A stretch of DNA of 64,000 nt from positions 64,001 through 128,000 of the IMG/VR virus record IMGVR_UViG_3300028601_000023. One strand, 5' to 3'. The DNA is from a virus (Duplodnaviria > Caudoviricetes). Position 1 is the stretch's first letter, and every line of letters starts with the position of its first letter. The notes beneath the pieces were generated by a model. It was given only the letters and a program-made list of their open reading frames with translations, ran no database searches and had not been told where the DNA came from. The position numbers and the translations under genes were made by a program. Positions 2,811-60,070 of this stretch are shown here, piece after piece.

Positions 2811-3169
2811 AATTATGAAAAAGTAGTTGACAGCTTTTCTTATCGGTTATATCTATTAATTGAAATTGCTTATAAACATCAACAATCAACCACAGAGTTT
2901 ATCATGATCACGACACTTTCTATCAGTTCCATCGAGATCGCAAACAGAGCTCGAAACCTTTACAAGCACAACGGACTATACTTCAGACTGTTTGCTAAAG
3001 GTATTACTCCTAATGGCTGCTGGTTGGTCGCTCCTTACATGCTGCAGCTGATTGATATTGATGCTGCAACTGGCGAAGACGTATATGGACAGAACAGGAT
3101 TGAGTTCATAGGAATGGTTGAGTCCAATAGAGAATATGTAAAATATTTTGACTGAAAGCGTAAAATTGA

Positions 3170-3243
3170 TTGACATATACTAACCATTTAGTTATTCTAA
3201 ACTCAATTGAACGGAACAATAACAAAAAACCAAGGAGTTTATC
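3170..3243 (+). promoter_or_regulatory. early promoter + leader cassette, copy 2
   Basis: TTGACA(3170)-17-TATTCT(3193), same leader. Confidence 0.85.
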
Positions 3244-3591: not shown

Positions 3592-4788
3592 CTCAACCCA
3601 TCTATAAGGAGATATTCAATGACTTCCTATGAACTTGCTGAGTCCATCATGTGTGAGCCGATCCGTTTTGATGACGCAGATGAACTGACAATATCCGCAG
3701 AGGATCGAGCAGCATTGCGCATTGCAAAGATTCTTGGTATCTCTGCGGAGGAGGAATAAGATGTTGGAAGAAAAAGTTGTTCATCTGTTGAATCAGTTGG
3801 AAAATCTGTCAAAGCAATATACACCAGAAGTATTTGATGCTGCTGTGGCAGTTATTCAGATGAATGGTATTACAGAGATTCTAGGAGGACTTATTGTTAT
3901 TGTTCTTGCGGTTGCTGTAGGATATATTTCTTTACGGCTTTACAAATATGCAGGTCAAAAATATGAAGAAGATTATATGAGTGATTGGAACGAAGTTCAA
4001 GGAGTTGTTCAATGGATCGGTCCAATAATTACAATAACGCTTTTAGTCATTGCTTCTTGTTTTCTATTTGATATCTGGAATTGGATTGCTATTTTCAATC
4101 CGAAGTTGGCTCTTGCAAAAACTGTTCTAAAGTTTTAGGAGATCTCATGGGAATCTGTCCGTATTGTGAAAAAGAAATTCCAAGACAAGAATCTGCTATT
4201 CACCATGTTCTTGATTGTGCTAGACTGTTGATCGAGAAGTATGAGAATGCTCTACATAAAATTGTCAAATATTGTCCGTATGAAAATACTGATCCGAAAC
4301 TTCTATCTGAGCAAAAGCGTATTCTAAATGAAATCATGGTGTGTCCAAACTGTGCTAAGAAAGCTGCAAATCAATACGCGTTTTCTAATAGATGTGACAA
4401 GCATTATTCTGAAGAACGAAAAATAGATCTACGGATCAATTCACATCGAGAATATCTAGCTGAGTATGGACCGAAAGAAATTGCTAAAGAGGCATTGAAG
4501 AAAGAATGACAGAAGAAAGAATTATAGCATCAGCGATTAGACATAAGGAAACATGTGAAATATGGACTCTACCCGCACCAGCAAGACACCACAATCTTTT
4601 TAGAATACTTCCTGATGAGTTATCTAGTTCAGATATTGCTAAGTATATAGAACAGGGATTTGAAACCAATCTTAGACCGTTTGTTGATCGAAAAGAAGCA
4701 AAGAAGATTGCTCGTGAAGCAGATCAACTGTTAGATCGAGCTTCTCCACTAAATATTCTTTTTTCTGAAGATGTTTGGTAGAATTCTA

Positions 4789-4853
4789 TTGACAGTCTAA
4801 TAAGAATTGAATATTCTAAACTCAATTGAACAACATAAACCAAGGAGTTTGAA
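4789..4853 (+). promoter_or_regulatory. early promoter + leader cassette, copy 3
   Basis: TTGACA(4789)-17-TATTCT(4812). Confidence 0.85.
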
Positions 4854-5063
4854 ATGGAAACCAACAGAATCGAAATCGACACCAACTTTTCATATGAAAT
4901 TGACTATCAGAATTTGCATAGAACCGGTACTTGGACTCTGATTACAATTTACAAGAACGGACAATTGTTCGGTGGAACTTCTCATAAGGGTCGTCTGTCT
5001 GAGGAAGAGTGTTTGAAGAACGCCAAGAATTTCATTGCAATATACAACTCTTAAGGAACCAAA

Positions 5064-5923: not shown

Positions 5924-6368
5924 GATGATAGTTTATAGAATTTATAAACAGATGAATGCGGCAGATACATGGAGAGATCCAGATGATATTCATGTTGTTG
6001 AACTTGGATACAAACAATCATTAGAAGATTCTCTTGTGTTTGTTCAAAAACAAATTTTAGAAACATTTCATAGAAAACATACTGAAATTTTTAAAAGAAA
6101 AGACGGAACTTATAGTGCTCAGGATTTTTGTTCTTATGCGTGGGAAATAATCATTCAACCAATTGAGGTAGATTAAATGATGAGATGTCCTAAGTGTAAG
6201 GAACAGATGAAAAGAACTTATACACATCATAGAGCATATGATAAGCCCAATATGCATATTGAATCATGTGCAGATTGTTCAATTCAAATTTGTTGGTTCG
6301 AAATGAAAGATGGTTACACATATAAAATTGATCAGATTAAAGATGATGAAACATTAGAAGGATAGAAA

Positions 6369-6770
6369 ATGGAAAAAGCTAATAGATTTTGCGTTCAAAC
6401 TCTAATCAAAGCAGATGAACCAACTTTTAATGGGAGAATCTATTCGAAAGATCTATTGAAAGAAATTTGTAAAATGGATTTCCCAGAATACGGGTCGTGC
6501 TTTCATGGTTATGATAGAAATTTTGATATTGGAACAATTTCTCACATTAACCACGGGTTGTTTATTGAAGATGGTATCCTTACTGGTGATATTGAAGTTT
6601 TAGAAACACCTCCCGGTAAAATTTTAAAAAATGTAATACAAGAATGTGGAGCAGAATCTTTGTTTTTAAACATTTGTTTTGATGCAACTAATATAGACGA
6701 TAAAGAAAATTTTAAGATTATTAGCATTGTTAGTCTTCCTATATCTCCAAGGAGCGATATTCATGAATAA
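6369..6770 (+). CDS. truncated prohead protease gp21-like paralog
   Basis: ADEPTFNGRIYSKDLL...ISHI...GDIEVLETPPGKIL resembles the gp21 N-terminal part; no GVSSRG serine motif. Confidence 0.55.
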   Translation: MEKANRFCVQTLIKADEPTFNGRIYSKDLLKEICKMDFPEYGSCFHGYDRNFDIGTISHINHGLFIEDGILTGDIEVLETPPGKILKNVIQECGAESLFLNICFDATNIDDKENFKIISIVSLPISPRSDIHE

Positions 6771-7005: not shown

Positions 7006-7419
7006 TGACTGTAGTAAAAATTAACGACTATACAGATAATGAAGTAATTAATCTCATAGATTGTGTTACTGGGTGGGCATATAAGATTTTCTTTGAGGGT
7101 GGAAATAGTTCTATATGGTTGTGTCTAGATGTTGAAGGTGAAACAGTTTTTGTTGATTGTAACCATCTTTCTGTTGAAACCGCAGAATCTTTAACAGTAT
7201 CATATGATCCGATCATCAAGATTATTCCAATTGAAAATATAACTATTATTGCAGAGTAAGCAATGAATTCTGATCTCATAAGATGCACATACTGTGGAAG
7301 ATTCATCGCATATAAAGATCTTGAAGAAGAAACTGCTTCTTTCATAATGACTCTTCCTGAGTCTGCTTATTCAGTTGAGACATGGGTTGGAACATGTAAA
7401 GCATGCAACCAAAAAATGA

Positions 7420-7482
7420 TTGACAGCCCATCATGTTTCAGTTATTCTAAACTCAATTGAACAACAAACCAAGGAGATTGAA
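7420..7482 (+). promoter_or_regulatory. early promoter + leader cassette, copy 4 (true ORF start 7483)
   Basis: TTGACA(7420)-17-TATTCT(7443). Confidence 0.85.
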
Positions 7483-8792: not shown

Positions 8793-9271
8793 AGGAGAAT
8801 GTATGAATATCGGAACATGTTCTATTTGTGGAGGAGCCGTTACTACACCAGACGTTTGGCATGGTGTTATTCCGCCAACCCCGCGATGTTCTAGCTGTGG
8901 TGCAGTTCCTGCTGCTACTTATGGACCAATCATTCAAATGAGACCACAAGTGATTACTGAGATCATTACGACTGGTCCTACAACACTTAATCTATAAACA
9001 CCATTATGAACCTTATAACTTTTCTAACTATCTGGTCATGGATCTTGATGATTGCTGGAGGGATTCTTTCTATTGCCAATGCTGCAATGTTTTGGTATTA
9101 TGAATTCACGAACGACGGGCAGTATACTGTTCTTGTCTATGGTCCTAGACATTATTGGTCTGTTAAGTGGGCTGTTCTTTTTCTTGTAGTTGGTGTATCA
9201 ATATTCTTTTCATTGGAGTAAGCAATGCAAACTTTCATGCCGTATTGGGAAAATCTATTTAGGGGGAAGTT

Positions 9272-9544
9272 ATGAAAATTCGAGCGGGGTTTGTTTCTAA
9301 TTCGAGCAGCAGTTCATTTGTGGTTCATAAGTCTGAACTCGGCGAGCACTATAATGATATTGTAAATGATCTTGAATTGCTTAGTATCAATACTGATGGA
9401 TATTGGGGAGATTCCGGAGAAACTTATACTGAGCAGCGTGGATATCTATTTGTAGAAACTCATCGTGTCTATAGTGAAGTAAAAGAGATCTTTGCTCGTC
9501 GTGGAATCGATTGCAACAATATTGGACTACGGATGGTTGGCTAA
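9272..9544 (+). CDS. MKIRxGFVSNSSSSSF-motif protein 1
   Basis: N-terminal motif shared with 32431, 33212, 33511. Confidence 0.75.
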   Translation: MKIRAGFVSNSSSSSFVVHKSELGEHYNDIVNDLELLSINTDGYWGDSGETYTEQRGYLFVETHRVYSEVKEIFARRGIDCNNIGLRMVG

Positions 9545-16714: not shown

Positions 16715-16729
16715 AATAAATAAAAGTTG

Positions 16730-16799
16730 TTGACATCTAGACTCCGAATGGTTATTCTAATCTTAATTGAACGGAAACATATAACCATTCGGAGTTATC
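16730..16799 (+). promoter_or_regulatory. early promoter + leader cassette, copy 5 (with SD-sequestering inverted repeat)
   Basis: TTGACA(16730)-17-TATTCT(16753); actccgaatggttat / ataaccattcggagt. Confidence 0.8.
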
Positions 16800-17060
16800 A
16801 TGCTTTACCACCCCACTTACACTGCCGCAATTTCTACTGCTCTTGATTCCGCTGAAGAACTCGGTTATTCCTATGATGAAAATGAATACTTTGATACAAT
16901 AGCAATCGGAACATCTCGTCCAAAAGTTGGCGAGACTTCGAGATTCTCCCTTAGACTTCGTCACAATAGCATGAAAGCCACTGATGCTGATGTATATATT
17001 CATGTACAGGTTTATGGAATGGAATCTGGAATGTACGAACTTAACTTTTATATTCTGTAA
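16800..17060 (+). CDS. early hypothetical protein
   Basis: ORF after cassette; ends QVYGMESGMYELNFYIL. Confidence 0.7.
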   Translation: MLYHPTYTAAISTALDSAEELGYSYDENEYFDTIAIGTSRPKVGETSRFSLRLRHNSMKATDADVYIHVQVYGMESGMYELNFYIL

Positions 17061-17068
17061 AACAATTA

Positions 17069-17133
17069 TTGACATTCTATAAGCTATTAGTTATTCTAAA
17101 CTCAATTGAACAACAAATCCCTGGAGGATTAAG
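17069..17133 (+). promoter_or_regulatory. early promoter + leader cassette, copy 6
   Basis: TTGACA(17069)-17-TATTCT(17092). Confidence 0.85.
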
Positions 17134-20418: not shown

Positions 20419-20456
20419 AGACTTTCAAGCGCCGCAACGAAACAGTCAATAATATC

Positions 20457-20478
20457 GGGACCTTACGGTCCCTTTTTT
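20457..20478 (+). terminator. intrinsic terminator
   Basis: gggacc-ttac-ggtccc followed by tttttt. Confidence 0.8.
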
Positions 20479-20489
20479 AATTTTCTGCT

Positions 20490-20854
20490 AATTTTGTTGG
20501 TAAATATACAGCAATTTTCGTCAATTTCGGGAATAGTCAATTAATTCAACAGGTTAGATGAAATATAGACACACTCTAAGTGGTTGATTTAATTCAACAA
20601 AAAAAGATACCGTTATTTTCCACAACATTTTTCGTAAATCACAAAAGTGAACCGTTTAAAGTAGACAGCTGAAGGTTTTCTATATGTATTTCGCTGAATA
20701 TTCTACTAGAGAAGAGCGAAGCTAAATCTTTCCACTGAGGGAACCGAAGTGGATGTCCGCAAGGACAAAACTCTGATGAGATTTTATTAGATCACCGGAG
20801 TGAATACTTAAAGTAGACAGCTGAAAGTATTTTTAGACTAAAACTTTAGAGTCT
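20490..20854. repeat. dispersed non-coding repeat copy A (origin-like)
   Basis: two blocks (20490-20637, 20714-20854) nearly identical to 57271-57418 and 57494-57634. Confidence 0.95.
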
Positions 20855-21222
20855 CTAAGGTGGGCGGTAAAAAGTATATCTAAATCGTTCTATGAAATTC
20901 TATTTCAATTAATGATCAACCAATTTCTTCTATTGCCTCTAATTGTTCCCTAGCGGGAAATGGCCTCGGTTCCCTTCGGCCAAAGTTTTAATGGTTTCTA
21001 TAAATATTTCTATGGAAACCTTCTATCAAATTTTCAACTAAGTTTCTATTAATTTTTATTCATTATTTCTATGTTATATCCATGTTTTATAGCTCCAAAC
21101 TATATTTGCTTGTGACTAAGTATTCAAGATTATTGAAAATGATGAATTCGGCAACAATTTCAGCTATTCTATTGACAACTGAAGAATTTTGGAGTATATT
21201 AATCTTTTAACGGAGGATATCT

Positions 21223-32197: not shown

Positions 32198-32430
32198 AGG
32201 GATATATGACAGAAGAGAGTCTTGTATATAGACTACAAAAACGAGCAGAGATTCGTCGGCAAATTCCAGGTAGAAAATCTGTGCAGGAAAACAAACCTGA
32301 CCGAATTGCTGATTTATTAGAGGAAGCTGCAGCTGAAATTCTATATCTGAAGAAGATTGTTGAAGCACCTTGGAAATGCGATGTCTGTGGTAATTATGTA
32401 TCTAATGAATGCGCAGAAACGGAGTAGATC

Positions 32431-32865
32431 ATGAAAATTAGAAACGGATTTGTTTCCAATAGTTCAAGCAGTAGCTTTATTGTCATCAATGATTCTGGTA
32501 ATAAAGTTCATCCTTCATTTGGAGATGTTCTTGAAATTCGAATGACTGATGGAGAATATGAGTTTGGGTGGCAGGTGGAAGAATATTACGACTTCAATTC
32601 AAAGTTCAACTGGTGCTATATCATTGCTTCGTATCAAGCAGAAGAAGAAAAAGAACGTCTTCACCAGATGTTAATTGAAACAATTGAAGAAGAACTTTGT
32701 GTTCCAGTAGAAGTCAATTGGAATGCTCAATCAGAATATGACTATTATATCGATCATGGATCTGTTGAAGATCATAATATGGCTATGTTTGATAGTAAAG
32801 AAGATCTAAAGGCATTTCTCTTTGATCCAGCAAGTTATATTCACAATACTAATGATAATATGTAG
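32431..32865 (+). CDS. MKIRxGFVSNSSSSSF-motif protein 2
   Basis: shared N-terminal motif. Confidence 0.8.
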   Translation: MKIRNGFVSNSSSSSFIVINDSGNKVHPSFGDVLEIRMTDGEYEFGWQVEEYYDFNSKFNWCYIIASYQAEEEKERLHQMLIETIEEELCVPVEVNWNAQSEYDYYIDHGSVEDHNMAMFDSKEDLKAFLFDPASYIHNTNDNM

Positions 32866-33211
32866 GAGACTATGGAACTATCAGATCTAACATATGAAGC
32901 AGGATTTCCAGCAGACATGGATAAAACCCAGCCTATATATCTGTTCAATCCAGAATTTGGAATTATTTCTGTTCAACCATGTGTAATGTATAAGCAGGTT
33001 GTAACTGGAAAGTGGACAAGATCATATCTCGGTAGAACAAAAGCACCAAAAGGTATGACAGTATTCAATACAGGAGATAAAAAGTGATATGCCCATATTG
33101 TAATAAATCTGTAAAGGATATGGTTGCTCATCTAGAGAAATCTGAAAAGTGTGCTGAGAAACATACACGAAACCTAACAGACCAAATAAAAGTAATACTA
33201 GGAGATAAGAA

Positions 33212-33514
33212 ATGAAAATTCGAGCAGGGTTTGTGTCTAATTCAAGTAGTTCAAGTTTTTGTATTTTGGGTGTTGTTGCTTCTGACGTAATCAACTCAGA
33301 CATCAAATGGGATCTTCCAAAGGGGTTTGTTTCTGAATATGGTATCAGTGACTACGACGGCGAGCTGATTGGAATGAATCCAGAGAGTCTTGATGAGAAT
33401 ATGACAATCAAACAGACAAAGGAATATATTGCGAAAACATTGTCAGAATCTTACGGCGTAGAAGTAAAGCCAGAAGAAATTCATTGGCACATGGACGGAG
33501 GATATGACGGATGA
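33212..33514 (+). CDS. MKIRxGFVSNSSSSSF-motif protein 3
   Basis: shared N-terminal motif. Confidence 0.8.
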   Translation: MKIRAGFVSNSSSSSFCILGVVASDVINSDIKWDLPKGFVSEYGISDYDGELIGMNPESLDENMTIKQTKEYIAKTLSESYGVEVKPEEIHWHMDGGYDG

Positions 33515-33873
33515 AGATTAGAACAGGATTTGTAAGTAATAGTTCAAGCAGCAGTTTTATTCTTCCATATAATAAAGATCTAACCGTTTCTATTACTATG
33601 GATGATCTTATTGATATTATAGATAACGCAGATGAATCCAGTGTAGAAGAACCGTTACATACTGTTGATGATGTCAATAAATATTTTATTGCGCAATATG
33701 GATTTAGAGATCAGACTATTGAAGATCTATTGAAAGATGATTATTATCAAGAAAAATATGATGAACTGATTGAAATTATCAATAGAGGCCAGTCAGTACT
33801 TGTCGGTAGTATTTCATATCATGAACTGCTTGCTACGGCGTTGTTGACAAGAATGGGCGCTGAAATTGACTAA
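33511..33873 (+). CDS. MKIRxGFVSNSSSSSF-motif protein 4
   Basis: shared N-terminal motif. Confidence 0.8.
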   Translation: MKIRTGFVSNSSSSSFILPYNKDLTVSITMDDLIDIIDNADESSVEEPLHTVDDVNKYFIAQYGFRDQTIEDLLKDDYYQEKYDELIEIINRGQSVLVGSISYHELLATALLTRMGAEID

Positions 33874-34296: not shown

Positions 34297-34845
34297 GGCC
34301 TTCAGTTATAAAACAAATTCGAGATCTAGAACGTCAGATTGCTGAACGAAGGTATTCATTAATTTTTACTATCTATGACAATGTAATTGACAAGGAGCGA
34401 GACGATGTCTGATGAAGTTCAAATGGTGTCGAATTTGAAAACGAAAGAGGCGGTAAAGGTCAGTTACGAACAGTTTGAGAAGCTCCTAGCCGATGCCCTC
34501 TGGAAACACGCCGGGAAGCTCCGGGAGAGTCCGAGGACCTGTGCCGTGGACTACCGGCGCATGTTTGAGCGAATGCCCCTCCTCGAAGGCTGGAGCCTTC
34601 TGGCCCTGGCTCGAGAGCATGAGGAATTCCACCCGGAACGGGTAGCCCAAATCGAGGGGCTCCTGAAAAGGCGGACAGGAGCAGCGGAAATTTGTCGATC
34701 AGGGCGTGGCCTTTAGTTATAAAACAAATTCGAGATCTGGAACGTCAGATTGCTGAACGAAGACGTTCTTTAATTTCTATCTATGACAAGGAGCGAGACG
34801 ATGTCCGATGAAGTTCAAGTGGTGCTGAATCTGAAAACGAAAGAG
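34297..34845 (+). repeat. ~140-150 bp imperfect direct repeat (34297-34449 / 34708-34845) flanking a GC-rich insert
   Basis: both copies read ggcctt.agttataaaacaaattcgagatct...ggagcgagacgatgtc.gatgaagttcaa...aaaacgaaagag. Confidence 0.9.
34405..34716 (+). CDS. chimeric hypothetical protein (phage N-terminus + GC-rich body)
   Basis: MSDEVQ start shared with the 34801 ORF. Confidence 0.65.
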   Translation: MSDEVQMVSNLKTKEAVKVSYEQFEKLLADALWKHAGKLRESPRTCAVDYRRMFERMPLLEGWSLLALAREHEEFHPERVAQIEGLLKRRTGAAEICRSGRGL

Positions 34846-35229
34846 AAGTTCAAGATTACTTCTGAAACAATTGAAAAGCTTTGGCCGAAAACAGAAGATG
34901 ATTTTCAGAAACTCTTTCCTGGCCTAGGTTCCATCAGTAAACCATACAAGGATCCAATCGGTGATCGTCTCGCTGAATATCTTGTTACTGAAAAGAGATC
35001 TCTTATCATTACAATGTATATGCTTCAGAAGTTTACTGGAACTGTTTTTCCAATTTCTATCAAGGACAACGTTTACTATCCAATGATCTTTAAGTATAGA
35101 TCAGAGTTGCTTGAGATTCTTGAAGCTCTCGAAATCAATAATGCTGATACAGAATATCTCGAGCGGATCATCAATTTGATTTTCATTAAGCTCACCGGTG
35201 GAATGTATACTTCTGCTGGAACAGATTAG
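34801..35229 (+). CDS. hypothetical protein
   Basis: MSDEVQ start, AT-rich body. Confidence 0.65.
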   Translation: MSDEVQVVLNLKTKEKFKITSETIEKLWPKTEDDFQKLFPGLGSISKPYKDPIGDRLAEYLVTEKRSLIITMYMLQKFTGTVFPISIKDNVYYPMIFKYRSELLEILEALEINNADTEYLERIINLIFIKLTGGMYTSAGTD

Positions 35230-36346: not shown

Positions 36347-36817
36347 ATGCGAATTTTTGGAAACATCATCTGGCATCTGTTTTGTTTTGGGTGGCTGACA
36401 TCTTTGATTTCTGTTCTATTTGGCGCTCTATTTTCTATTACTGGATTTCTAACACCGATTGGACTAGGATTGATTCAGTACGCAAAATTTACTCTAGCTC
36501 CTTTTAGTTATTCTATGATCTCAAAGAAAGAACTTCGTCCAGTAACTCATCAGACTGGAATTCTATGGAAGTTGCTATCAGTTATTGGATTTATTTTCTA
36601 TGCTCCGTTTGGAATTGCTTTGGTGATTCTAGGAGTCTTTCAAGCAATCGTATTGATTTGTACTATTATTGGAATTCCTATGGCTATTCCATATATCAAG
36701 AGTCTCGGTACTCTATTCAATCCGATCGGAAAGGTTTGTGTTCCAAGAGTTGTCGCGACTGCGGTTAAAGCTCGGAACGATGCAATGGTAGTAGAAAAAT
36801 ATATTGGTAATGTGTAA
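36347..36817 (+). CDS. YccF-domain inner membrane protein
   Basis: GNIIW..FGW, PIGLG, TIIGIP.A, P.GK. Confidence 0.85.
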   Translation: MRIFGNIIWHLFCFGWLTSLISVLFGALFSITGFLTPIGLGLIQYAKFTLAPFSYSMISKKELRPVTHQTGILWKLLSVIGFIFYAPFGIALVILGVFQAIVLICTIIGIPMAIPYIKSLGTLFNPIGKVCVPRVVATAVKARNDAMVVEKYIGNV

Positions 36818-36825
36818 AATACTTG

Positions 36826-36897
36826 TTGACAGTACTCCTTGGTTGAGTTATTCTAAACTCAATTGAACGGAACAACAAAAACCAAGGAGTTTACAAA
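36826..36897 (+). promoter_or_regulatory. early promoter + leader cassette, copy 7 (with SD-sequestering inverted repeat)
   Basis: TTGACA(36826)-17-TATTCT(36849); actccttggtt / aaccaaggagt. Confidence 0.85.
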
Positions 36898-41149: not shown

Positions 41150-41773
41150 ATGAGTTATTCTATCATTGATTTAAGGTACAATTCTATAACTGAAATCTTC
41201 AGCTATGACAGACTATTGCTTTGGATCAATGATAGTTGTTGTCATTGGCAGACTTGGAGAGGAGACAGAAAACAACTTCTCAAATATACAATTGCTAATA
41301 ATCCAAACGAATTCAGCTGGACCTATGAACGTCAAGTCAGACAGTATTTGATTCTTGATGAATATGACAGAATTATATCTCGTGAGATTTTGACTGATGA
41401 AATTCTTTCCAAGACTAAAGAATGGTTTGGTACTATTAGAAAAGAACGAAATCGGGAACAGCTTGCAGCCTGGAAAGCAAAAAGAGAAATCATAGACGAA
41501 CAATGGGAATTCTGGTCTTCTAGAAGAGATCGTTACAAATATTATGATTATCATCGTCATCCTCGGACTACACAAGAAAGATCTTTTGCTGTAGACGTGG
41601 ATCACAAACCATATGTTAGAGGCAAAAGATCTCTTCCAAATCTCCCAGACTGGTATCAAGATATTCCGATTTATATTCACAGAAAGAAATCGTGGAAAGC
41701 ACTGACAAAAAGAAAAAGACAGTGGAATCCTATTGACAAATCTATAGAATCAGAATATTCTAAACTCAATTGA
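41150..41773 (+). CDS. conserved phage hypothetical protein
   Basis: RHPRTTQE..VRGKRS..NLPD...KSWK..TKRKRQW. Confidence 0.65.
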   Translation: MSYSIIDLRYNSITEIFSYDRLLLWINDSCCHWQTWRGDRKQLLKYTIANNPNEFSWTYERQVRQYLILDEYDRIISREILTDEILSKTKEWFGTIRKERNREQLAAWKAKREIIDEQWEFWSSRRDRYKYYDYHRHPRTTQERSFAVDVDHKPYVRGKRSLPNLPDWYQDIPIYIHRKKSWKALTKRKRQWNPIDKSIESEYSKLN

Positions 41774-41800
41774 ACGGAACAATAAACCAAGGAGTTTCAA
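41733..41800 (+). promoter_or_regulatory. early promoter + leader cassette, copy 8
   Basis: TTGACA(41733)-17-TATTCT(41756). Confidence 0.85.
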
Positions 41801-44155
41801 ATGGGAAAGTATGATCATCAGGGTTCGTTTACATTTTGGGGAAATCGTATCTATCCTTTACCAGATGGTCTCGGAATCAACGTCAATTACAGCATGTACA
41901 GCTCAAGCATAGACGATATTTCTATTGATGAACTTGGAATCGTGTTTGATAATCTTTCTGAAGTAGATGCAAAAGATTTTTCCGATGTAGATTCTGTTAT
42001 CAAGGCTAAAGATAATCCGCCCCATAAAGATGAAAGCCATATTATGATCAAATTGTTTTCATTGATCTCTGAACTTCAGATCGAAGCATGGGAAGATTTT
42101 CAATCAAAAGGAAGGTTATCTAAATGACTACTTTTACTTATGCAGATATGGTCAATACTGCTACAATGTTGGAACTCTTTACTTTGTTAGAAGCTGATCC
42201 AAATGTTTCTAGTAGAATTGATGATTTTTTCTTTATCTATATCGATGGGCATTATGATATTGCTCCGATGCACTATCCTATGCAATCTCTTTGCAAGTTT
42301 CTTGAAAATCCCGGCACCGTTGACGAAATTGTCGAGTTGTATGGATTAGAAATGATTGATCTTATTCGGTTCATGTGTGGAGATTGTCTATTTTGATAAA
42401 TAGATATCAGAGGTATATACATGGAAACAAAAGTTTTAGAAAAATTACAGATCTGTGACATTAATTCAAAAGAACATACAGAACTGATGATTCGAATTGT
42501 TGAGTTGTTAAGTTCTATTGATAAACAAATCAAATCCCTCGAAGAATCTGTAAAGTCTGCTCATAGGAGGACAGAAAATGGAAATCAGATGCACGGAATG
42601 TAATGCACATCTTGGAGATATTACCGGGAAGATTCGACTGTCTATGACCAACTATATCTGTACAAAATGTCTCAAGAAACTAAAAGCAATGGAATCGTTG
42701 AAGAACTCTGGATATCCTAAGAATGATTTTGGAGATATCTTCGGCGATCTGTTCGGCGACACATTTAGACGTTGACAGATCCGAATCGTTTGGGTATATT
42801 GATCCCAACAAAGGAGCTTATATGAAAAAGATCAAGACTATTATCATCTCGTGTCTGTTGGTTGTTTGTCTGCAGACATCAGCGTTTGCGTGGGGTGCTT
42901 TGGAACAGGGTATTCTCTGGGGTGTTGGCGGGACTATTGTAACACAGCAGCTGCTTCGTCCTCAGGTTGTTCATGTTCATCCTGCATATCAACCAACATA
43001 TTTTCCGTATACTCGGAGATACGTGGAACCATATCATGCCCCTCGTCCTGTAGAACCAATTTACAGAGAGACTGAAGCATACGATCCTGCTTGTGGTTGT
43101 TATAAGCGGGTCTTCATAAGAATTAATTAAGAACAATACTATCTGGAGGCATTTAGTGGATATTCTTTGTCCTTATTGTAATGCAGACGCTGATCAGATT
43201 TTGATTACTGCATTAGATAAAGAAGCGTGTTGGTGCGATGAATATGGTGTTTACTACAAGAAAGTTTTGAATGCTACACCAGAAGAAATGGATACTGCTA
43301 TTTACTCAAGTAACTATTGCTTCAAGTGTTGCGTCTGTGGATCCCTTCTACAACATTCTTATATCAACCATTATTATATCCGGGAACTCGAACGGAATAA
43401 AGGTAAAGCAGCATGATCAAGAAATACTGGTATGAAATCATTACTCCTCTTGGAACATTTAAATCTGATGGAGCAATGTGTACAGAAGAAACCTTAGAAA
43501 GAGCAAAAAAGTATATAGCTTGTGTATGTCAAGATGTTGCAAATCCAAATATAGCTTCTTCACATTGGTTTATTGTAAATAAAGAATTCGTTTACTTTCC
43601 AGATACTATTCTTGCTAATAGCATAATCAAAATCAAAACCGGATACAAATGGTGGTAATAATGGAAACATATATTAACTGCATGGATTGTCCTAACCATA
43701 TTGTAGAAGCTGATCCAGATCCGCATGATTGGTTTTGTGATGACGATCAGGCTGTTCTATGTACTTTAGCAAAAAATATTAATAATCAACATCGTTGGTG
43801 TGATAATCGTGTTTGGGTTCATAGACCCATTACATGGAGTTGTAGACCACATCATAAACGAGCAGATTGTGTTACTCCAGAATGGCGCCCGTTGCTTCAC
43901 AAAGAAGAACCCGCCACGTGTATCTGTGAAGGCAACTTTAGAAATATTATAAAAGAGACTGGAGGGCTGATCGGAAAAGATTTTAAAGATGCTAACAATA
44001 GAACATGGGAGTTTGCTGGAGTTCTCTGGGCATCTGACGATTTTTATTATGTCTTTGAACTTGAATCATATGATGCTGATATAACTCGGTATTGCTCTTG
44101 TATTGTTTCAATCGAACAGCACGGATTTAAACTTGTAGAATAGTAAAAGAATTAG

Positions 44156-44227
44156 TTGACAGAACTCCTTGGTTCAGTTATTCTAAACTCAATTGAACGG
44201 AACAACAACAAAACCAAGGAGTTTAAA
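44156..44227 (+). promoter_or_regulatory. early promoter + leader cassette, copy 9 (with SD-sequestering inverted repeat)
   Basis: TTGACA(44156)-17-TATTCT(44179); aactccttggtt / aaccaaggagtt. Confidence 0.85.
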
Positions 44228-56111: not shown

Positions 56112-56663
56112 CTAACCTCTGTTTCTATCTTTCCATACTGAAGTAGCAGTTGCCTTGTGAAAGTGAGCTAATGGAAGTTCAATTATATTAATCCATTCGT
56201 TCATCGGTACTTCAATCAATTTTGTTCTCATATGCGAAAAAAGATATCTTTTAAAGCAGTGCTTCCATCTTGAATGAGATAACCCAAGAAGCTTCTTATA
56301 AGATATAGTAATATTATTTATACTACGACCGGATACAAGTTTTTGAAAAGGAACTAATTGTTCTAATAGATATTGACGTTCTTTAATCGGAAGATAGTGA
56401 AAGTTCAGACCATAGAATCCTCCGGGAGCAGCATCAACCAAAATGATACATGGGTTAGAATCCCAGTACGGCAATTTGTCTTTAGTCTTTGCGTCATAAA
56501 CCATTAGATACATTCTACCAACTTTTGGTCTAGAGACCTGTTTGACGTTTGGCATTTCATTCTTAATCTTATTGAATAACCAGTTCATAGATCTACGAGC
56601 ATTTCTTGATACCGTAGATTTAGTAATCCCACCAAGGACTTCTTTTGCAAATTGATTTATCAT
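56112..56663 (-). CDS. DNA end protector gp2
   Basis: YDAKTKDKLPYWD, GLNFHYLP, CFKRYL. Confidence 0.92.
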   Translation of the reverse strand: MINQFAKEVLGGITKSTVSRNARRSMNWLFNKIKNEMPNVKQVSRPKVGRMYLMVYDAKTKDKLPYWDSNPCIILVDAAPGGFYGLNFHYLPIKERQYLLEQLVPFQKLVSGRSINNITISYKKLLGLSHSRWKHCFKRYLFSHMRTKLIEVPMNEWINIIELPLAHFHKATATSVWKDRNRG

Positions 56664-57175
56664 TTCTTTTTACCTTTAGCTTTAAATAAATGTCTTTCAG
56701 TAACTACACAGAATTCAAATCCTCTCATCTGACAATACTTTTTGGCTGCTTCCCATTTTGCTTGGTTGACCATGTAAGTTTTCATCTGTTCTTTGAATTG
56801 TGCTTTTGCTTTTTCTGTTAGCAATCGTTTGACGACCGGAGTAATAGTCTGAGCAAACGGTTTGATCTCGACTAAGAATTTCTTTATAGTTCCATCCTTC
56901 TGTCTAACAGCAATAAAGAAGTCGATGAAATACCGATGTTGTTTGTTATCTATAGGAGATATGTACGGAATGACAACTTCTTCTGATGCGTATTGAACAA
57001 TAGCAGGATTCTCATCACACCACTGAATGAATTTTCGCTCCCATGAAGATCTATAGACGATGGATGTAGGATTACCCATATATTTAGACGGATTCTTCGG
57101 ACGATAGTATCCCTGATGATATCGGCTCTTCCGGGATATCGTTGGTTTTTTTGTAGTACTGTTGATATGACTCAT
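56660..57175 (-). CDS. head completion nuclease gp4
   Basis: PKNPSKYMG, YRSSWE, HRYFIDF, EIKP, NQAKWEAA. Confidence 0.92.
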   Translation of the reverse strand: MSHINSTTKKPTISRKSRYHQGYYRPKNPSKYMGNPTSIVYRSSWERKFIQWCDENPAIVQYASEEVVIPYISPIDNKQHRYFIDFFIAVRQKDGTIKKFLVEIKPFAQTITPVVKRLLTEKAKAQFKEQMKTYMVNQAKWEAAKKYCQMRGFEFCVVTERHLFKAKGKKK

Positions 57176-57270
57176 GTATATATTTATTGACGGCAAAAAC
57201 CGCGGCAAAAGCACCTTTAAAGCAATGACCTATAACCTGCTTATATAATTAATGTTTTTGAATTTTCATC

Positions 57271-57634
57271 AATTTTGTTGGTAAATATACAGCAATTTTC
57301 GTCAATTTCGGGAATAGTCAATTAATTCAACAGGTTAGATGAAATATAGACACACTCTAAGTGGTTGATTTAATTCAACATTTGTAGATACCGTTATTTT
57401 CCACAACATTTTTCGTAATTGCGGAGCAAATGACTATAAAGTGGCTATAGCTGAAGTTTTATTCTGTAGATTTTTATGGAAACTAACTGAAAGGAGCGAA
57501 GCTAAATCTTTCCACTGAGGGAACCGAAGTGGATGTCCGCAAGGACAAAACTCTGATGAGATTTTATTAGATCACCGGAGTGAATACCTAAAGTAGACAG
57601 CTGAAAGTATTTTTAGACTAAAACTTTAGAGTCT
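57271..57634. repeat. dispersed non-coding repeat copy B (origin-like)
   Basis: matches 20490-20854. Confidence 0.95.
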
Positions 57635-58228
57635 TCATGGAATGATAGAAATAATTTAAAAGTATATCTATCAGCTTATAGTTATATTGACGAGCTTCTA
57701 ATTGATAGATGAATTTCAATATCAACTAATTGATCATTCTCCGGTTCCCTCCGAATGATACCGTCACTAGTTCCTAGTGACAATGGTTTTAATGGTTCCT
57801 TTAAAATTCTATTCTAAATACCTTTATTGTTCGTTATTTCTAGATCCAAAACCAATAGGTTTTTAATCTAAGCAATTAAATTTATTCTAATCTCATTCTC
57901 CGGTTCCCTCCGAATGACCGTCGCCAGTTCCTGGCTCCGATATTTTGTTGGTCCTTATTTACTATTCTTGAAGTTTATAAATATCAATTAACGATTCTTT
58001 TAAATTTATTCTATTATTTTATATTATGTCCCTCCAAAACCAATTTAAACTGAATGTAAAGTATTGAAATTGGAAGGCCAGGCCAAAACTGATTGACAAT
58101 TGGATGATGGTTGATATATGAATTGTTATTCAGTCTAATGAAACAAATATCAACCTTGGCTGAATTGCCTATTGACAGATATCTAGAAATGTTATAAATA
58201 TATCAAATCTTGTGGAATTAGGAGTCAT

Positions 58229-60070
58229 ATGTTTGTTTCCAGAAAACATCTAGCCGAACATTTGTCAGCAATAGAAGAGAATGAACTTTCAGCCGAAATC
58301 TTTATTGCTGATAAAATTCTCAATCATCCTGTTTTTTGTGACATTATCAACCCAGATCACAATTTTTCAACCGATACCGTCTTTAATAAAGCCATCTATG
58401 ATAAACTTGTTGCTGCTGCAACGCTAACAACAATATATCATTATCTTCGTGCGTCTAATATATCAATGTATGAGCAGTTTGCTGTAACTCCTTATATATT
58501 GAGCAAGTTCTATAGATTTGATAGAGATGTATTTCTCGGCTATGGTGCCGGAATTACACGCATGACAAAAGAAGATAAGCCGTCATCTTATTTAAGTCCT
58601 TTTATAACTCATGTACAGCGCGGATACTATTTCTATAAGAACTGTCCTCAAAATAAGCTTCCAGAATATAGATTCACACAAGAAGCACTTGATCTATTGT
58701 TGACTATTGATTCAGATGATACTAAATATATCAAAATAGATCTTAAAAAGCATTATACTGCAGTTGCTGAATATTCTTCAGAAATTTCGCGCCGTGGACA
58801 ATTTGTAAATAAAGTTGAAGTTCCAGTCTTGGTATATAATGGAAAAGAATATACTAGAGGTAATGTTAGTTCTGCTATTGCTCATTTCTCCAAACAAAAA
58901 GGTCATCCATACGTTATTTGGAATAAAGAATATAAAAATGAAATACTTCCGAAGATGATTGAAGAATTTTATTCTCTTTATTCGTTTCCGGAAGTAAAAG
59001 TTCCGACCTCTCCAACAGCTAAAGAACTATTTGAATCTTCTACTATTAAAGTATATTCATATGACGAGTTCAAATCTGAGTTTTATGAGATCGCTTTAGG
59101 AACTCCATGGTTGACAAAACAGAAAAATACTGTTTTTGAACATACCGCTCAGCTCGATCTATCAAACATTGAAGATTTAATTGCTAACGAATCAAATAAC
59201 TTACATGTAATCGCAACACTTGAACTAATTAAGTATGAGGCGTTCAAGACTAACAATAATATTAAGCTCGAATATCATAGATCTCAGCATGGAAGACTCT
59301 ACCAATCAGGACCGTCTCTGCAAATGTTACCCAAAGCAATTCGCAAGAAACTGTTGTCCAAATATACTGAAATTGATATTGCTTCATCAGTCTATTCTAT
59401 TGTTTATAATTATGCAAAGAACAATAACTACACTGGTTCAATGGACCATATCACCAATTATGTAGATGATCCTCATGGATTTCGAAAGAAGCTCCATTCT
59501 AATCTATCTGAAATTGATCCAACTGTGACGGAAGATTATGTTAAAACTAATCTGATTGCTGTTGCTTATGGTGCTAATTATAATGCTAACTATATTGGGT
59601 TTGATGCTCGTAAGAAATGTCCTCAGACTATAGCTGTCACGACTTCCGGCTATACTATGACAGATGTCCCAGAACGGTTAGCAGACAACAAAGACTTCCA
59701 GAATCTCATTGCAGATTTCCGTGGAATTGTCAAATGGTATATAGATAATCATAAAGTAAAGACAGAAACTGGAACATATTTTGAGAACGCTCTTGGTGCT
59801 AAGATGAAACTTGAACGTGGAACATCCCTTGGCAAGAAATTGGCTCATATGTATCAGGCTCTAGAAGTCATTATTCTCGAAAAAATGGCATCAGTCCCAG
59901 TACCGAAGTATGGAAATCTATCGCTGAAGAGTACTCGAAACGGTATTGGTCTAATGCTTCATGATGGAATCTACGTATTGAAAGAACATTTTGAAGGTAT
60001 TCCAGATGTTAGTAAGTATTTCAACGAGTTCATCAAGAATGCTTTGGGATATGATCTGAGATTTGATTGA
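58229..60070 (+). CDS. PolA/T7-RNAP-superfamily polymerase-domain protein lacking exonuclease domains
   Basis: HGRLYQ..PSLQMLPK.IR, motif A EIDIAS, motif B K-x7-YG (KTNLIAVAYG), YQALE, motif C LMLHDGIY. Confidence 0.75.
   Translation: MFVSRKHLAEHLSAIEENELSAEIFIADKILNHPVFCDIINPDHNFSTDTVFNKAIYDKLVAAATLTTIYHYLRASNISMYEQFAVTPYILSKFYRFDRDVFLGYGAGITRMTKEDKPSSYLSPFITHVQRGYYFYKNCPQNKLPEYRFTQEALDLLLTIDSDDTKYIKIDLKKHYTAVAEYSSEISRRGQFVNKVEVPVLVYNGKEYTRGNVSSAIAHFSKQKGHPYVIWNKEYKNEILPKMIEEFYSLYSFPEVKVPTSPTAKELFESSTIKVYSYDEFKSEFYEIALGTPWLTKQKNTVFEHTAQLDLSNIEDLIANESNNLHVIATLELIKYEAFKTNNNIKLEYHRSQHGRLYQSGPSLQMLPKAIRKKLLSKYTEIDIASSVYSIVYNYAKNNNYTGSMDHITNYVDDPHGFRKKLHSNLSEIDPTVTEDYVKTNLIAVAYGANYNANYIGFDARKKCPQTIAVTTSGYTMTDVPERLADNKDFQNLIADFRGIVKWYIDNHKVKTETGTYFENALGAKMKLERGTSLGKKLAHMYQALEVIILEKMASVPVPKYGNLSLKSTRNGIGLMLHDGIYVLKEHFEGIPDVSKYFNEFIKNALGYDLRFD

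Follow-up and report, generated by a model that had tools for sequence, protein, structure and literature searches.

In a T4-like phage, long intergenic gaps carry a non-coding cassette in which clusters of small hairpins, many of them with GAA loops, are arranged on opposite strands. Our analysis suggests, with a probability of about one half, that the cassette consists of strand-specific signals in single-stranded DNA at which template-directed synthesis starts and runs outward, in the manner of ssiA/ssiB of RSF1010 or the hairpins of N4. The initiating enzyme is probably the linked family-A-polymerase-like protein of 613 residues. We observed the hairpin motif, its strand polarity, the covariation of its stems and, in relatives, its linkage to the polymerase gene. 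The window analysed here comprises 64,000 nt, bases 64001-128000 of a 141-kb IMG/VR contig; positions refer to the window unless they are given as genome positions.

Three copies of a mosaic cassette

The source contig has about 36% G+C and encodes gp46, gp4, gp2, gp32, gp59, baseplate proteins, NrdD/NrdG, an ATP-dependent ligase, a gp43-type PolB and six tRNAs. A Y1 transposase gene of the IS200/IS605 type lies at genome 6264-6632. The nearest cultured relative is the Desulfovibrio/Nitratidesulfovibrio phage SRB7757, whose NrdD is ~64% identical; its genome has 142,573 bp and 6 tRNAs, and the phage is available in culture (PMC12016055). Two copies of the cassette occupy the two longest protein-ORF-free stretches of the window, 20419-21222 (copy A) and about 57080-58228 (copy B), the start of gp4 being placed by homology at ~57079 rather than at the GTG at 57214. 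The sequence-only reading had called these the only two long non-coding gaps; they are the longest, but one other gene-poor stretch exists, which contains the 6 tRNAs.

A repeat search bore out the two near-identical blocks, 36.8 kb apart, that had been noticed in the letters. Block 1 (20474-20637 in copy A, 57255-57418 in copy B) extends over 164 nt with 93% identity, the differences being confined to one 5-nt patch, and block 2 (20709-20854 and 57489-57634, + strand) over 146 nt with 98% identity. The element had been described as duplicated, but it is triplicated: the genome-wide search for further copies found one more, copy 0, at genome 28182-28580, outside the window and 56 kb upstream. 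Just left of the cassette in copy A, and common to copy 0, lies the intrinsic terminator of the upstream operon (20457-20472, + strand; GGGACC-TTAC-GGTCCC, then a T run). Block 1 contains nested direct repeats, ACAGCAATTTTCGTCAAT / ACAACATTTTTCGTAAAT 114 nt apart and two occurrences of TTAATTCAACA 48 nt apart. A further direct repeat of 17 nt, TAAAGTAGACAGCTGAA, is found at 20657-20673 and 20809-20825 in copy A, the right copy lying within block 2, and at 57589-57605 in copy B, where its left partner is degenerate (all + strand). The matches at 20657, 20809 and 57589 are exact, the first two as reported earlier, and the repeat is above chance, with 0.36 matches expected at up to 3 mismatches. 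Because the same sequence is found at all copies, the repeat belongs to the element itself rather than being a target-site duplication. On their right side the hairpins of copy A are followed by an AT-rich stretch (20991-21140), which in duplex stability ranks with the lowest 0.1% of genome windows and includes the T4 late-promoter consensus TATAAATA (20999-21006), and then by a sigma-70-like promoter (21172-21200) ahead of nrdG (21223).

In a three-way alignment the copies form a mosaic. Blocks 1 and 2 are near-identical throughout copies 0, A and B, while the interval between the two blocks, the spacer behind block 2 and the number and type of downstream modules vary. These modules, termed X and Y, carry hairpins on the - strand: copy A has one Y, copy B two X, and copy 0 one X and one Y together with a 45-nt insertion. 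The surroundings are different as well, with an SbcC-like gp46 gene and a peptidase-like gene on the two sides of copy 0, a 140-aa ORF and nrdG flanking copy A, and gp4 and the polymerase-like ORF flanking copy B. As flanks, indels and variable spacers differ among the copies, an assembly artefact, considered beforehand as a way in which the repeat could be spurious, is ruled out. Short-read contigs of close relatives (92-94% identical; non-coding DNA ~92%, polymerase 94%) break inside block 1 or module X, the behaviour expected at a genuine intragenomic repeat. In this genome the block 1 copies are identical at positions where two sister strains share two substitutions, a pattern that points to gene conversion within the genome, and the identity among the three copies may reflect such conversion and not constraint.

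The copies are spaced by 56 and 37 kb, and by 48 kb if a 141-kb circle is closed. An equally even spread would arise from three random points with a chance of ~5%, which we take as a hint only, the genome length being uncertain at a CheckV completeness estimate of 80%. The map position of cassette and polymerase gene varies by phage, beside gp4, after gp46 or, in SRB7757, elsewhere. Moreover, nrdD and nrdG are adjacent in SRB7757 and are 4.5 kb apart here, in an interval that includes copy A. From the different map positions and this interval it follows that the module has moved or been copied.

Conventional origin signals contribute little to this picture. The IHF consensus WATCAANNNNTTR and the DnaA box TTWTNCACA, both brought forward in the sequence-only reading, match the window 7 and 8 times, respectively, against 9.3 and 9.8 expected from shuffles, and the one match of each in either window copy carries no weight. 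A DnaA/IHF-dependent origin of the oriC or lambda type was rejected on these window-wide counts, which are at or below the shuffle expectation. The direct repeats comprise three different pairs and no array of three or more. In T4, oriF and oriG combine a MotA-dependent middle promoter, the transcript of which becomes the primer, with a stretch that unwinds easily. On comparison with them, a very unstable duplex stretch is present here, and the TGCTAA box to the left of block 1 lacks conservation across the copies. Copy B, on the side of gene 4, presumably lies near the place of T4 oriE, a correspondence that we do not use as evidence.

Hairpin design, stem covariation and strand polarity

All hairpins named in the earlier reading are present where it had placed them. 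In copy A, block 2 carries four + strand hairpins with GAA or GNRA loops: H1 (AGC-GAA-GCT, 20715-20723), H2 (TCCACT-GA-GG-GAA-CC-GA-AGTGGA, 20731-20753), H3 (TGTCC-GCAA-GGACA, 20754-20767) and H4 (CTCTG...CGGAG, 20771-20800). H1, H2 and H3 of copy B lie at 57495-57503, 57511-57533 and 57534-57547. Mirror module Y of copy A (20946-20982, - strand) repeats the H2-H3 architecture with unrelated stems, TGGCC-GAA-GG-GAA-CC-GA-GGCCA (20961-20982) and TTCCC-GCTA-GGGAA (20946-20959). In copy B the first mirror module X (57733-57781, - strand) consists of two hairpins, GTCACTAG-GAA-CTAGTGAC (57763-57781) and ATCATTC-GGA-GG-GAA-CC-GGA-GAATGAT (57733-57759). The second X-type module (57893-57935, - strand), with TCATTC-GGA-GG-GAA-CC-GGA-GAATGA (57893-57917) and GCCAG-GAA-CTGGC (57923-57935), is 100% conserved in a relative with a 94%-identical polymerase.

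The shared design is an outer stem, a G.A/G.A step, an inner stem of 2-3 bp and a GAA triloop. The 141-kb genome has 8 hairpins of the pattern stem-GA-NN-GAA-N'N'-GA-stem, all within the three gaps; a structural scan of the 141 kb returned those 8 plus a few weak AT-rich matches, and shuffles gave ~1 weak match per 141 kb. GGGAACC is found 11 times in the genome, 8 times in the three gaps, there each time set in such a hairpin. Simple GAA triloops alone are not enriched in genome-wide counts.

The outer stems belong to three unrelated sequences, TCCACT/AGTGGA on the + strand in block 2 and TGGCC/GGCCA and ATCATTC/GAATGAT on the - strand. Each GA/GAA hairpin is adjoined by a plain hairpin with a GAA, GCAA or GCTA loop, the stem of which is variable: it is GTCACTAG in the first X module and GCCAG, in covariation with the former, in the second, and between copies H3 reads TGTCC-GCAA-GGACA or TGTCCC-GAA-GGGACA. 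In H4 a G-T pair of copies A and B is an A-T pair in copy 0. Across phages the inner stems are GG:CC (here and in the relative L047), GCC:GGC (L047, SRB7757), GC:GC (SRB7757) and AT:AT or AC:GT (L049). Covariation was judged by inspection, as a MAFFT alignment of the hairpins misplaced the 3-bp inner stems. The stems covary while the loop and the G.A steps stay constant; with constant loops and steps on different stems, it would therefore be folded single strands that are recognised, and not duplex palindromes.

In 6 of 6 complete cassettes, i.e. the three described here and those of L047, L037 and SRB7757, GAA loops are borne by the + strand left of the centre and by the - strand right of it. 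The recurrence of the same architecture on the opposite strand, first pointed out for copy A, thus extends to all three copies and to three relatives. Read 5'->3', the loop-bearing strand of either half leads to the centre of the cassette; for the gene that points outward, it is the template strand.

The ingredients of the motif, G-N-A triloops with a sheared G:A pair, GCGAAGC-type mini-hairpins and tandem G.A pairs, are known stabilisers of small DNA hairpins. Nearly all G.A steps have the context pyrimidine-GA-purine, in which sheared pairs are favoured in DNA. The commonest closing pair in this phage is that of G-GAA-C, not of the extra-stable C-GAA-G; C:G is found in relatives. Nearest-neighbour DNA folding, the parameters of which do not model GNA loops, gave no strand asymmetry. 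Every gap includes a duplex stretch that ranks among the genome's least stable (top 0.1%). The least stable DNA is located just outside, to the right of, the - strand hairpins rather than between the left and right halves. AT-richness is, however, a general feature of long intergenic regions.

A rare polymerase-like protein and the cassettes of relatives

The gene downstream of copy B (58229-60070, + strand) encodes the 613-aa protein, which has no Pfam, PHROG or PDB sequence match. Its AlphaFold model (mean pLDDT 79.5) was matched by Foldseek to family-A DNA polymerases (Klenow, Bst, Taq, Pol theta) with a probability of 1.00, which confirms, for the predicted structure, a family-A polymerase fold. 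The protein is an extra polymerase-like one beside the gp43-type PolB. Its family is rare, with about 60 clusters among 1.8 billion representatives in an exhaustive HMMER search; a word-based protein search gave one near-identical homologue only, and HMMER was needed to recover the family. Divergent additional PolA genes in PolB-carrying phages have been catalogued without a known role, and that polymerase family has been described as similar to Pol I and to single-subunit RNA polymerases alike (PMC11348598). In the 141-kb contig there was no match to PF00940 (T7-type RNA polymerase, Pfam) and none to PF16793 (RepB'-type AEP primase), the latter being a weak negative, as control genomes likewise gave none. 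The 613-aa protein is a candidate for the enzyme that acts on the hairpins.

In four distant relatives, L047, L037, L049 and SRB7757, the gene for a homologue of the 613-aa protein is immediately preceded by a cassette. In the present phage the polymerase gene adjoins copy B only, and copies 0 and A are beside unrelated genes. L047, a 134.6-kb JGI contig with a polymerase about 33% identical, carries its cassette in a 955-bp gap directly after gp46, which is the position of copy 0 here. This gap starts with a terminator and a repeat-bearing left part including GTAAATATAC and TTGACAGCTGAA, comparable to GGTAAATATAC and TAGACAGCTGAA of this phage, and the core GACAGCTGAA of the 17-nt direct repeat reappears ahead of the + strand hairpins TC-GA-GCC-GAA-GGC-GA-GA and TTGCCC-GAA-GGGCAA. 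After a pyrimidine-rich spacer follow the - strand hairpins TTTCC-GA-GG-GAA-CC-GA-GGAAA, CC-GA-GCC-GAA-GGC-GA-GG and AATCC-GAA-GGATT, and the gap ends in sigma-70-type promoters and the polymerase gene. SRB7757 has the same layout in a 1.1-kb gap upstream of its polymerase homologue (28% identity, E 1e-5), with GATTCGGCAT-GA-GC-GAA-GC-GA-G-ATGCCGAATC and TGTC-GA-GCC-GAA-GGC-GA-GACA on one strand and AACC-GA-GC-GAA-GC-GAA-GGTT on the opposite strand; in its complete genome, well-formed hairpins of the motif are confined to this gap. In L037 (gp4 54% identical, C-terminal half of the polymerase 31% identical) the region that separates gp4 from the polymerase gene has simpler hairpins, which lie within a 69-nt inverted repeat. 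The + strand carries CTGTTCC-GAA-GGAACAG and TGATTCC-GAA-GGAATCA; beyond an AT-rich centre, CTGTTCC-GAA-GGAACAG returns on the - strand. From L049 the polymerase-proximal half is available, with CCTTCCT-GA-AT-GAA-AT-GA-AGGAAGG on the - strand, and the contig stops before the other half.

The linkage does not extend to all homologues. L045 has its polymerase homologue inside an operon, with no gap and no cassette, the 720-bp region upstream of the homologue in L052 is devoid of such hairpins, and L048 shows two adjacent GC-rich GNA hairpins only, in reverse order and terminator-like, which we consider ambiguous. No second cassette copy was found within 20-21 kb of L037, L047 and L048. Several other homologue contigs stop less than 100 nt upstream of the polymerase gene, which fits an assembly-breaking repeat or structure and proves nothing. 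A metagenome scan for polymerase loci gave 5, mostly cut at contig ends, and none of the IMG/VR loci related to the polymerase, sought with the single sequence and with a 27-sequence alignment, was confirmed.

At the nucleotide level, blastn of the gaps here against the relatives' cassettes gave nothing significant (best E 0.01-0.05, short matches), so that the kinship of the cassettes rests on motif, order and context. A blastn search of the gap in distant mode found no match in GenBank phages. Exact and gapped scans of IMG/VR for block 2 motifs returned 0 matches for one pattern; the 31 GC-rich matches to the other were all unrelated chance ones in coding DNA and were discarded.

Proposed initiation of synthesis and alternative readings

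The cassette shares features with several systems in which hairpins direct initiation. RSF1010 carries ssiA and ssiB on complementary strands, and ssiA contains CCGAAGG (PMC8567376, PMC13037366). Both systems have a single non-coding region with two complex hairpin signals, one on each of the complementary strands and each with a GAA mini-hairpin enclosed by a longer stem (CC-GAA-GG or GCC-GAA-GGC in L037, L047 and SRB7757), together with a dedicated element-encoded enzyme (RepB' in RSF1010, a candidate here), and direct repeats and AT-rich DNA alongside (PMC8567376, PMC13037366). Unlike in RSF1010, the linked enzyme here is family-A-polymerase-like in its fold, a search for a RepB'-type (AEP) primase gave none, 20-bp iteron arrays are missing, and the host element is a 141-kb T4-like phage with its own replisome; tandem G.A pairs with 2-3 bp and GAA, and several hairpins per side, are absent from the descriptions of ssiA/ssiB. 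In N4, template-strand G-N-A hairpins extrude and resist SSB (PMC4496689). The early promoters of N4 resemble the cassette in their short stems, their 5'-G-N-A-3' triloops with a sheared G:A pair and their function on one strand, and a right-hand single-subunit polymerase of the Pol I / T7 superfamily reads the hairpins there (PMC4496689). In N4, however, one hairpin, closed by a C:G pair and conserved in its stem bases, stands ahead of early genes, whereas here bipartite clusters of tandem-G.A hairpins are mirrored on both strands upstream of ordinary promoters; the GAA loops lie on the template strand of outward genes, with closing pairs mostly G:C in this phage and stems interrupted by G.A. 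The N4 enzyme makes RNA, while RNA synthesis is putative here.

For family-A enzymes there is a precedent in CCPol-MP (TV-Pol group), a proven DNA primase that begins DNA chains de novo at the SCCmec origin (PMC7581432). As there, a stripped-down family-A polymerase of a mobile or viral element neighbours a non-coding region, an origin in SCCmec and a candidate here. The SCCmec origin differs in its AAGTG iterons, to which the Cch2 helicase binds; GA/GAA hairpins have not been described for it, and an MP partner and a D5-type helicase are required there. The N4 early promoter hairpin GCGGAGC and the mini-hairpins of the G4 origin also mark initiation sites (PMC13037366, PMC4496689, PMC8567376). 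At the complementary-strand origins of G4, St-1 and alpha3, stable hairpin clusters with GCGAAAGC-type mini-hairpins that exclude SSB mark the primer start (PMC13037366), but these are ssDNA phages with one origin on one strand, primed by a host enzyme (DnaG primase). With a different enzyme, a different hairpin design and no iteron array, the cassette falls outside the ssiA/ssiB family and probably outside that of the N4 promoters as well.

If the elements acted as RNA, block 2 would be a structured small RNA of ~95 nt, and the mirror modules would be convergent RNAs or UTR elements, with the AGGGAACCG/GAA loop as the contact for a phage protein. We regard this as unlikely. Block 2 does fold stably as + strand RNA (z -3.25, a stability that 0 of 200 shuffles reached, vs z -1.04 for the - strand), GCAA is a classical RNA tetraloop of the GNRA type, a G-U pair becomes A-U in copy 0, and weak leftward sigma-70-like sites lie right of modules Y and X. 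Yet block 1, which is conserved together with block 2, is unstructured as RNA (z -0.4 and -0.7); no conserved sigma-70, MotA-type or late promoter was found ahead of block 2 and no terminator behind it; and the right-hand hairpins are located upstream of the consensus promoters of the downstream genes, hence outside those mRNAs. The motif on both strands would also need two convergent transcription units per cassette in four phage lineages. In agreement with the earlier view that this is not an RNA gene, only tRNAs pass the gathering threshold of Rfam 15 in the window, and in both window gaps nothing better than E 3.5 or 18 bits appeared up to E 10.

Promoters of the N4 type, at which the family-A-like enzyme would be an RNA polymerase that reads a template-strand hairpin and transcribes outward, are in our judgement more doubtful still. 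For the neighbouring gene that points outward, the GAA strand is in every case the template, N4 promoters have 5-7 bp stems and 5'-G-N-A loops on the template strand and a T7-like enzyme of the same superfamily (PMC4496689, PMC13037366), and the polymerase family has been likened to Pol I and to single-subunit RNA polymerases (PMC11348598). Ordinary sigma-70 promoters, however, already stand between the hairpins and the downstream genes, transcripts from the left half of copies 0 and A would run antisense into the terminator that ends the upstream operon, and the lack of a Pfam T7-type RNA polymerase match is accompanied by best Foldseek matches that are DNA polymerases. Outward transcription in such a scheme would enter nrdG, the peptidase-like gene or the polymerase gene to the right of the respective cassette, and gp4 to the left of copy B. 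T4-type phages also possess promoter-stem-loop (PeSL) cassettes, and we give the least credence to a non-initiating role in duplex DNA or in recombination, be it as a protein-binding region, a PeSL-like shuffling cassette or the substrate of a hairpin transposase or nuclease. Three dispersed copies with mosaic boundaries, a higher identity within the genome than between strains, and the variable map position of cassette and polymerase gene would suit mobility, as would the adjacency of nrdD and nrdG in SRB7757, relative to which the copy A region is an insertion, the resident Y1 transposase, and the location of copy 0 and of the L047 cassette just after an SbcC-like gp46 gene. Against it stand the constant loop and G.A steps on different stems and the flanking 17-nt repeat, the same at all copies and so part of the element. 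An IS200/IS605 or REP/RAYT element was rejected, since the end hairpins of the resident IS605 are unrelated and have no GAA loops, and since IS200/IS605 ends lie on one strand, the cassette hairpins on both.

Single-stranded signals akin to paired priming sites, the core of the sequence-only reading, are favoured by the opposed strand-specific motif, the stem covariation, the absence of an RNA family and the polymerase linkage, whereas its IHF/DnaA part fell away. From these observations we infer the action as DNA, the enzyme and the product. Initiation at the hairpins would require that the region turns single-stranded, by supercoil-driven extrusion or by helicase entry from the adjacent, very AT-rich stretch. 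The strand with GNA-type loops and tandem sheared G.A pairs would then keep compact hairpins, and the complementary TTC strand would not. The extra family-A-polymerase-like enzyme, or another primase, may recognise the hairpins and start a chain. By the chemistry of synthesis, an enzyme copying the hairpin strand moves toward the 5' end of that strand, so that synthesis would diverge from the centre; with the loop-bearing strand being + on the left and - on the right, both products would grow outward in a bidirectional start. Block 1 and the paired direct repeats may be duplex binding sites for an opening or loading factor. If the genome is ~141 kb and circularly permuted, there would be three start sites about 56, 37 and 48 kb apart, one of them still beside the polymerase gene. 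We propose tentatively, and somewhat against the odds, that the cassette is a portable origin module new to T4-like phages, in which a minimal family-A polymerase serves as a hairpin-specific primase (or RNA polymerase). Copying of the cassette to two additional sites would then let a single enzyme fire, in trans, three bidirectional origins at roughly even spacing.

To our knowledge, replication origins of T4-like phages are essentially unmapped outside T4, and the origins of T4 itself have no common sequence. The cassette is sequence-defined and structurally recognisable, and it is conserved with covariation in at least four phage lineages. As a compact and very stable DNA hairpin, the motif may have practical uses, too. 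A cultured carrier, SRB7757, makes the idea directly testable (PMC12016055). If the link between hairpins and polymerase holds, a job would be assigned to a rare polymerase family, and a third type of hairpin-reading initiation enzyme would stand beside RepB' and the N4 virion polymerase. If true, the cassette would provide a search pattern for origins in metagenomic phage genomes.

Early-promoter cassettes in the phage and a relative

An early-promoter cassette occurs at least nine times in the window, at 830-895, 3160-3225, 4787-4861, 7410-7475, 16720-16785, 17059-17124, 36816-36881, 41723-41788 and 44146-44211. Each copy consists of TTGACA, a spacer of 17 nt and TATTCT, followed by the leader AAACTCAATTGAAC(GGAAC), which is unchanged among the copies and includes the palindrome TCAATTGA. 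This leader could serve as an operator or as an RNA signal, and the cassettes resemble the mobile promoter-stem-loop (PeSL) cassettes known from T4-type phages. L047, a 134.6-kb contig of a relative, has its own early-promoter cassette in more than 15 copies (L047 11446-21451), composed of CTTGACA, about 17 nt and GATA(TCCTATA/GAACATA)AT, with a short GC-rich hairpin and AAGGAGATTGATATG after each copy. The arrangement is parallel in the two phages, with different sequences.

Other repeats and insertions

In the window, a near-identical N-terminal coding sequence (MKIR.GFVSNSSSSSF...) opens four genes, at 9267-9322, 32426-32481, 33207-33249 and 33511-33561, the remainder of each gene being different. 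In addition, about 400 bp are duplicated in tandem (34297-34484 and 34708-34880), from the end of one small gene through the start of the next, with 72 nt matching at 90% and 97 nt at 80%.

Outside the window, the minus strand at genome positions 6264-6632 encodes a Y1 transposase of the IS200/IS605 type (PF01797, E 3e-30). The end hairpins of this resident element (e.g. GGTCTC-ATTG-GAGACC) were considered as kin of the GAA-loop cassette hairpins and rejected, as they are unrelated.

In SRB7757, the nearest cultured relative, NrdD matched ours by tblastn in three separate pieces (PV062637.1 80136-83899, L057). The inserts between them, about 1.1 kb and 0.9 kb long, could represent inteins, introns or insertions of homing endonucleases; the nrdD gene of our phage is uninterrupted.

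Extent of gap B and contig ends at the hairpin cassette

The ORF list places the gp4 head-completion gene on the minus strand at window 56660-57214, with a GTG start at 57214 and a length of 184 aa. Since all homologues and one 99%-identical database protein comprise about 139-165 aa, the true start is probably at 57079, which would enlarge gap B, the non-coding stretch between gp4 and the polymerase-like gene that holds hairpin cassette copy B, to about 1.15 kb.

In many relatives, the short-read contigs (L035, L036, L038, L040, L041, L043, L044 and L046) stop on the cassette side, 30-450 nt from gp4 or the polymerase-like gene. Assemblies seem to break systematically at the hairpin cassette region, and the cassette may therefore be under-represented among metagenomic phage genomes.
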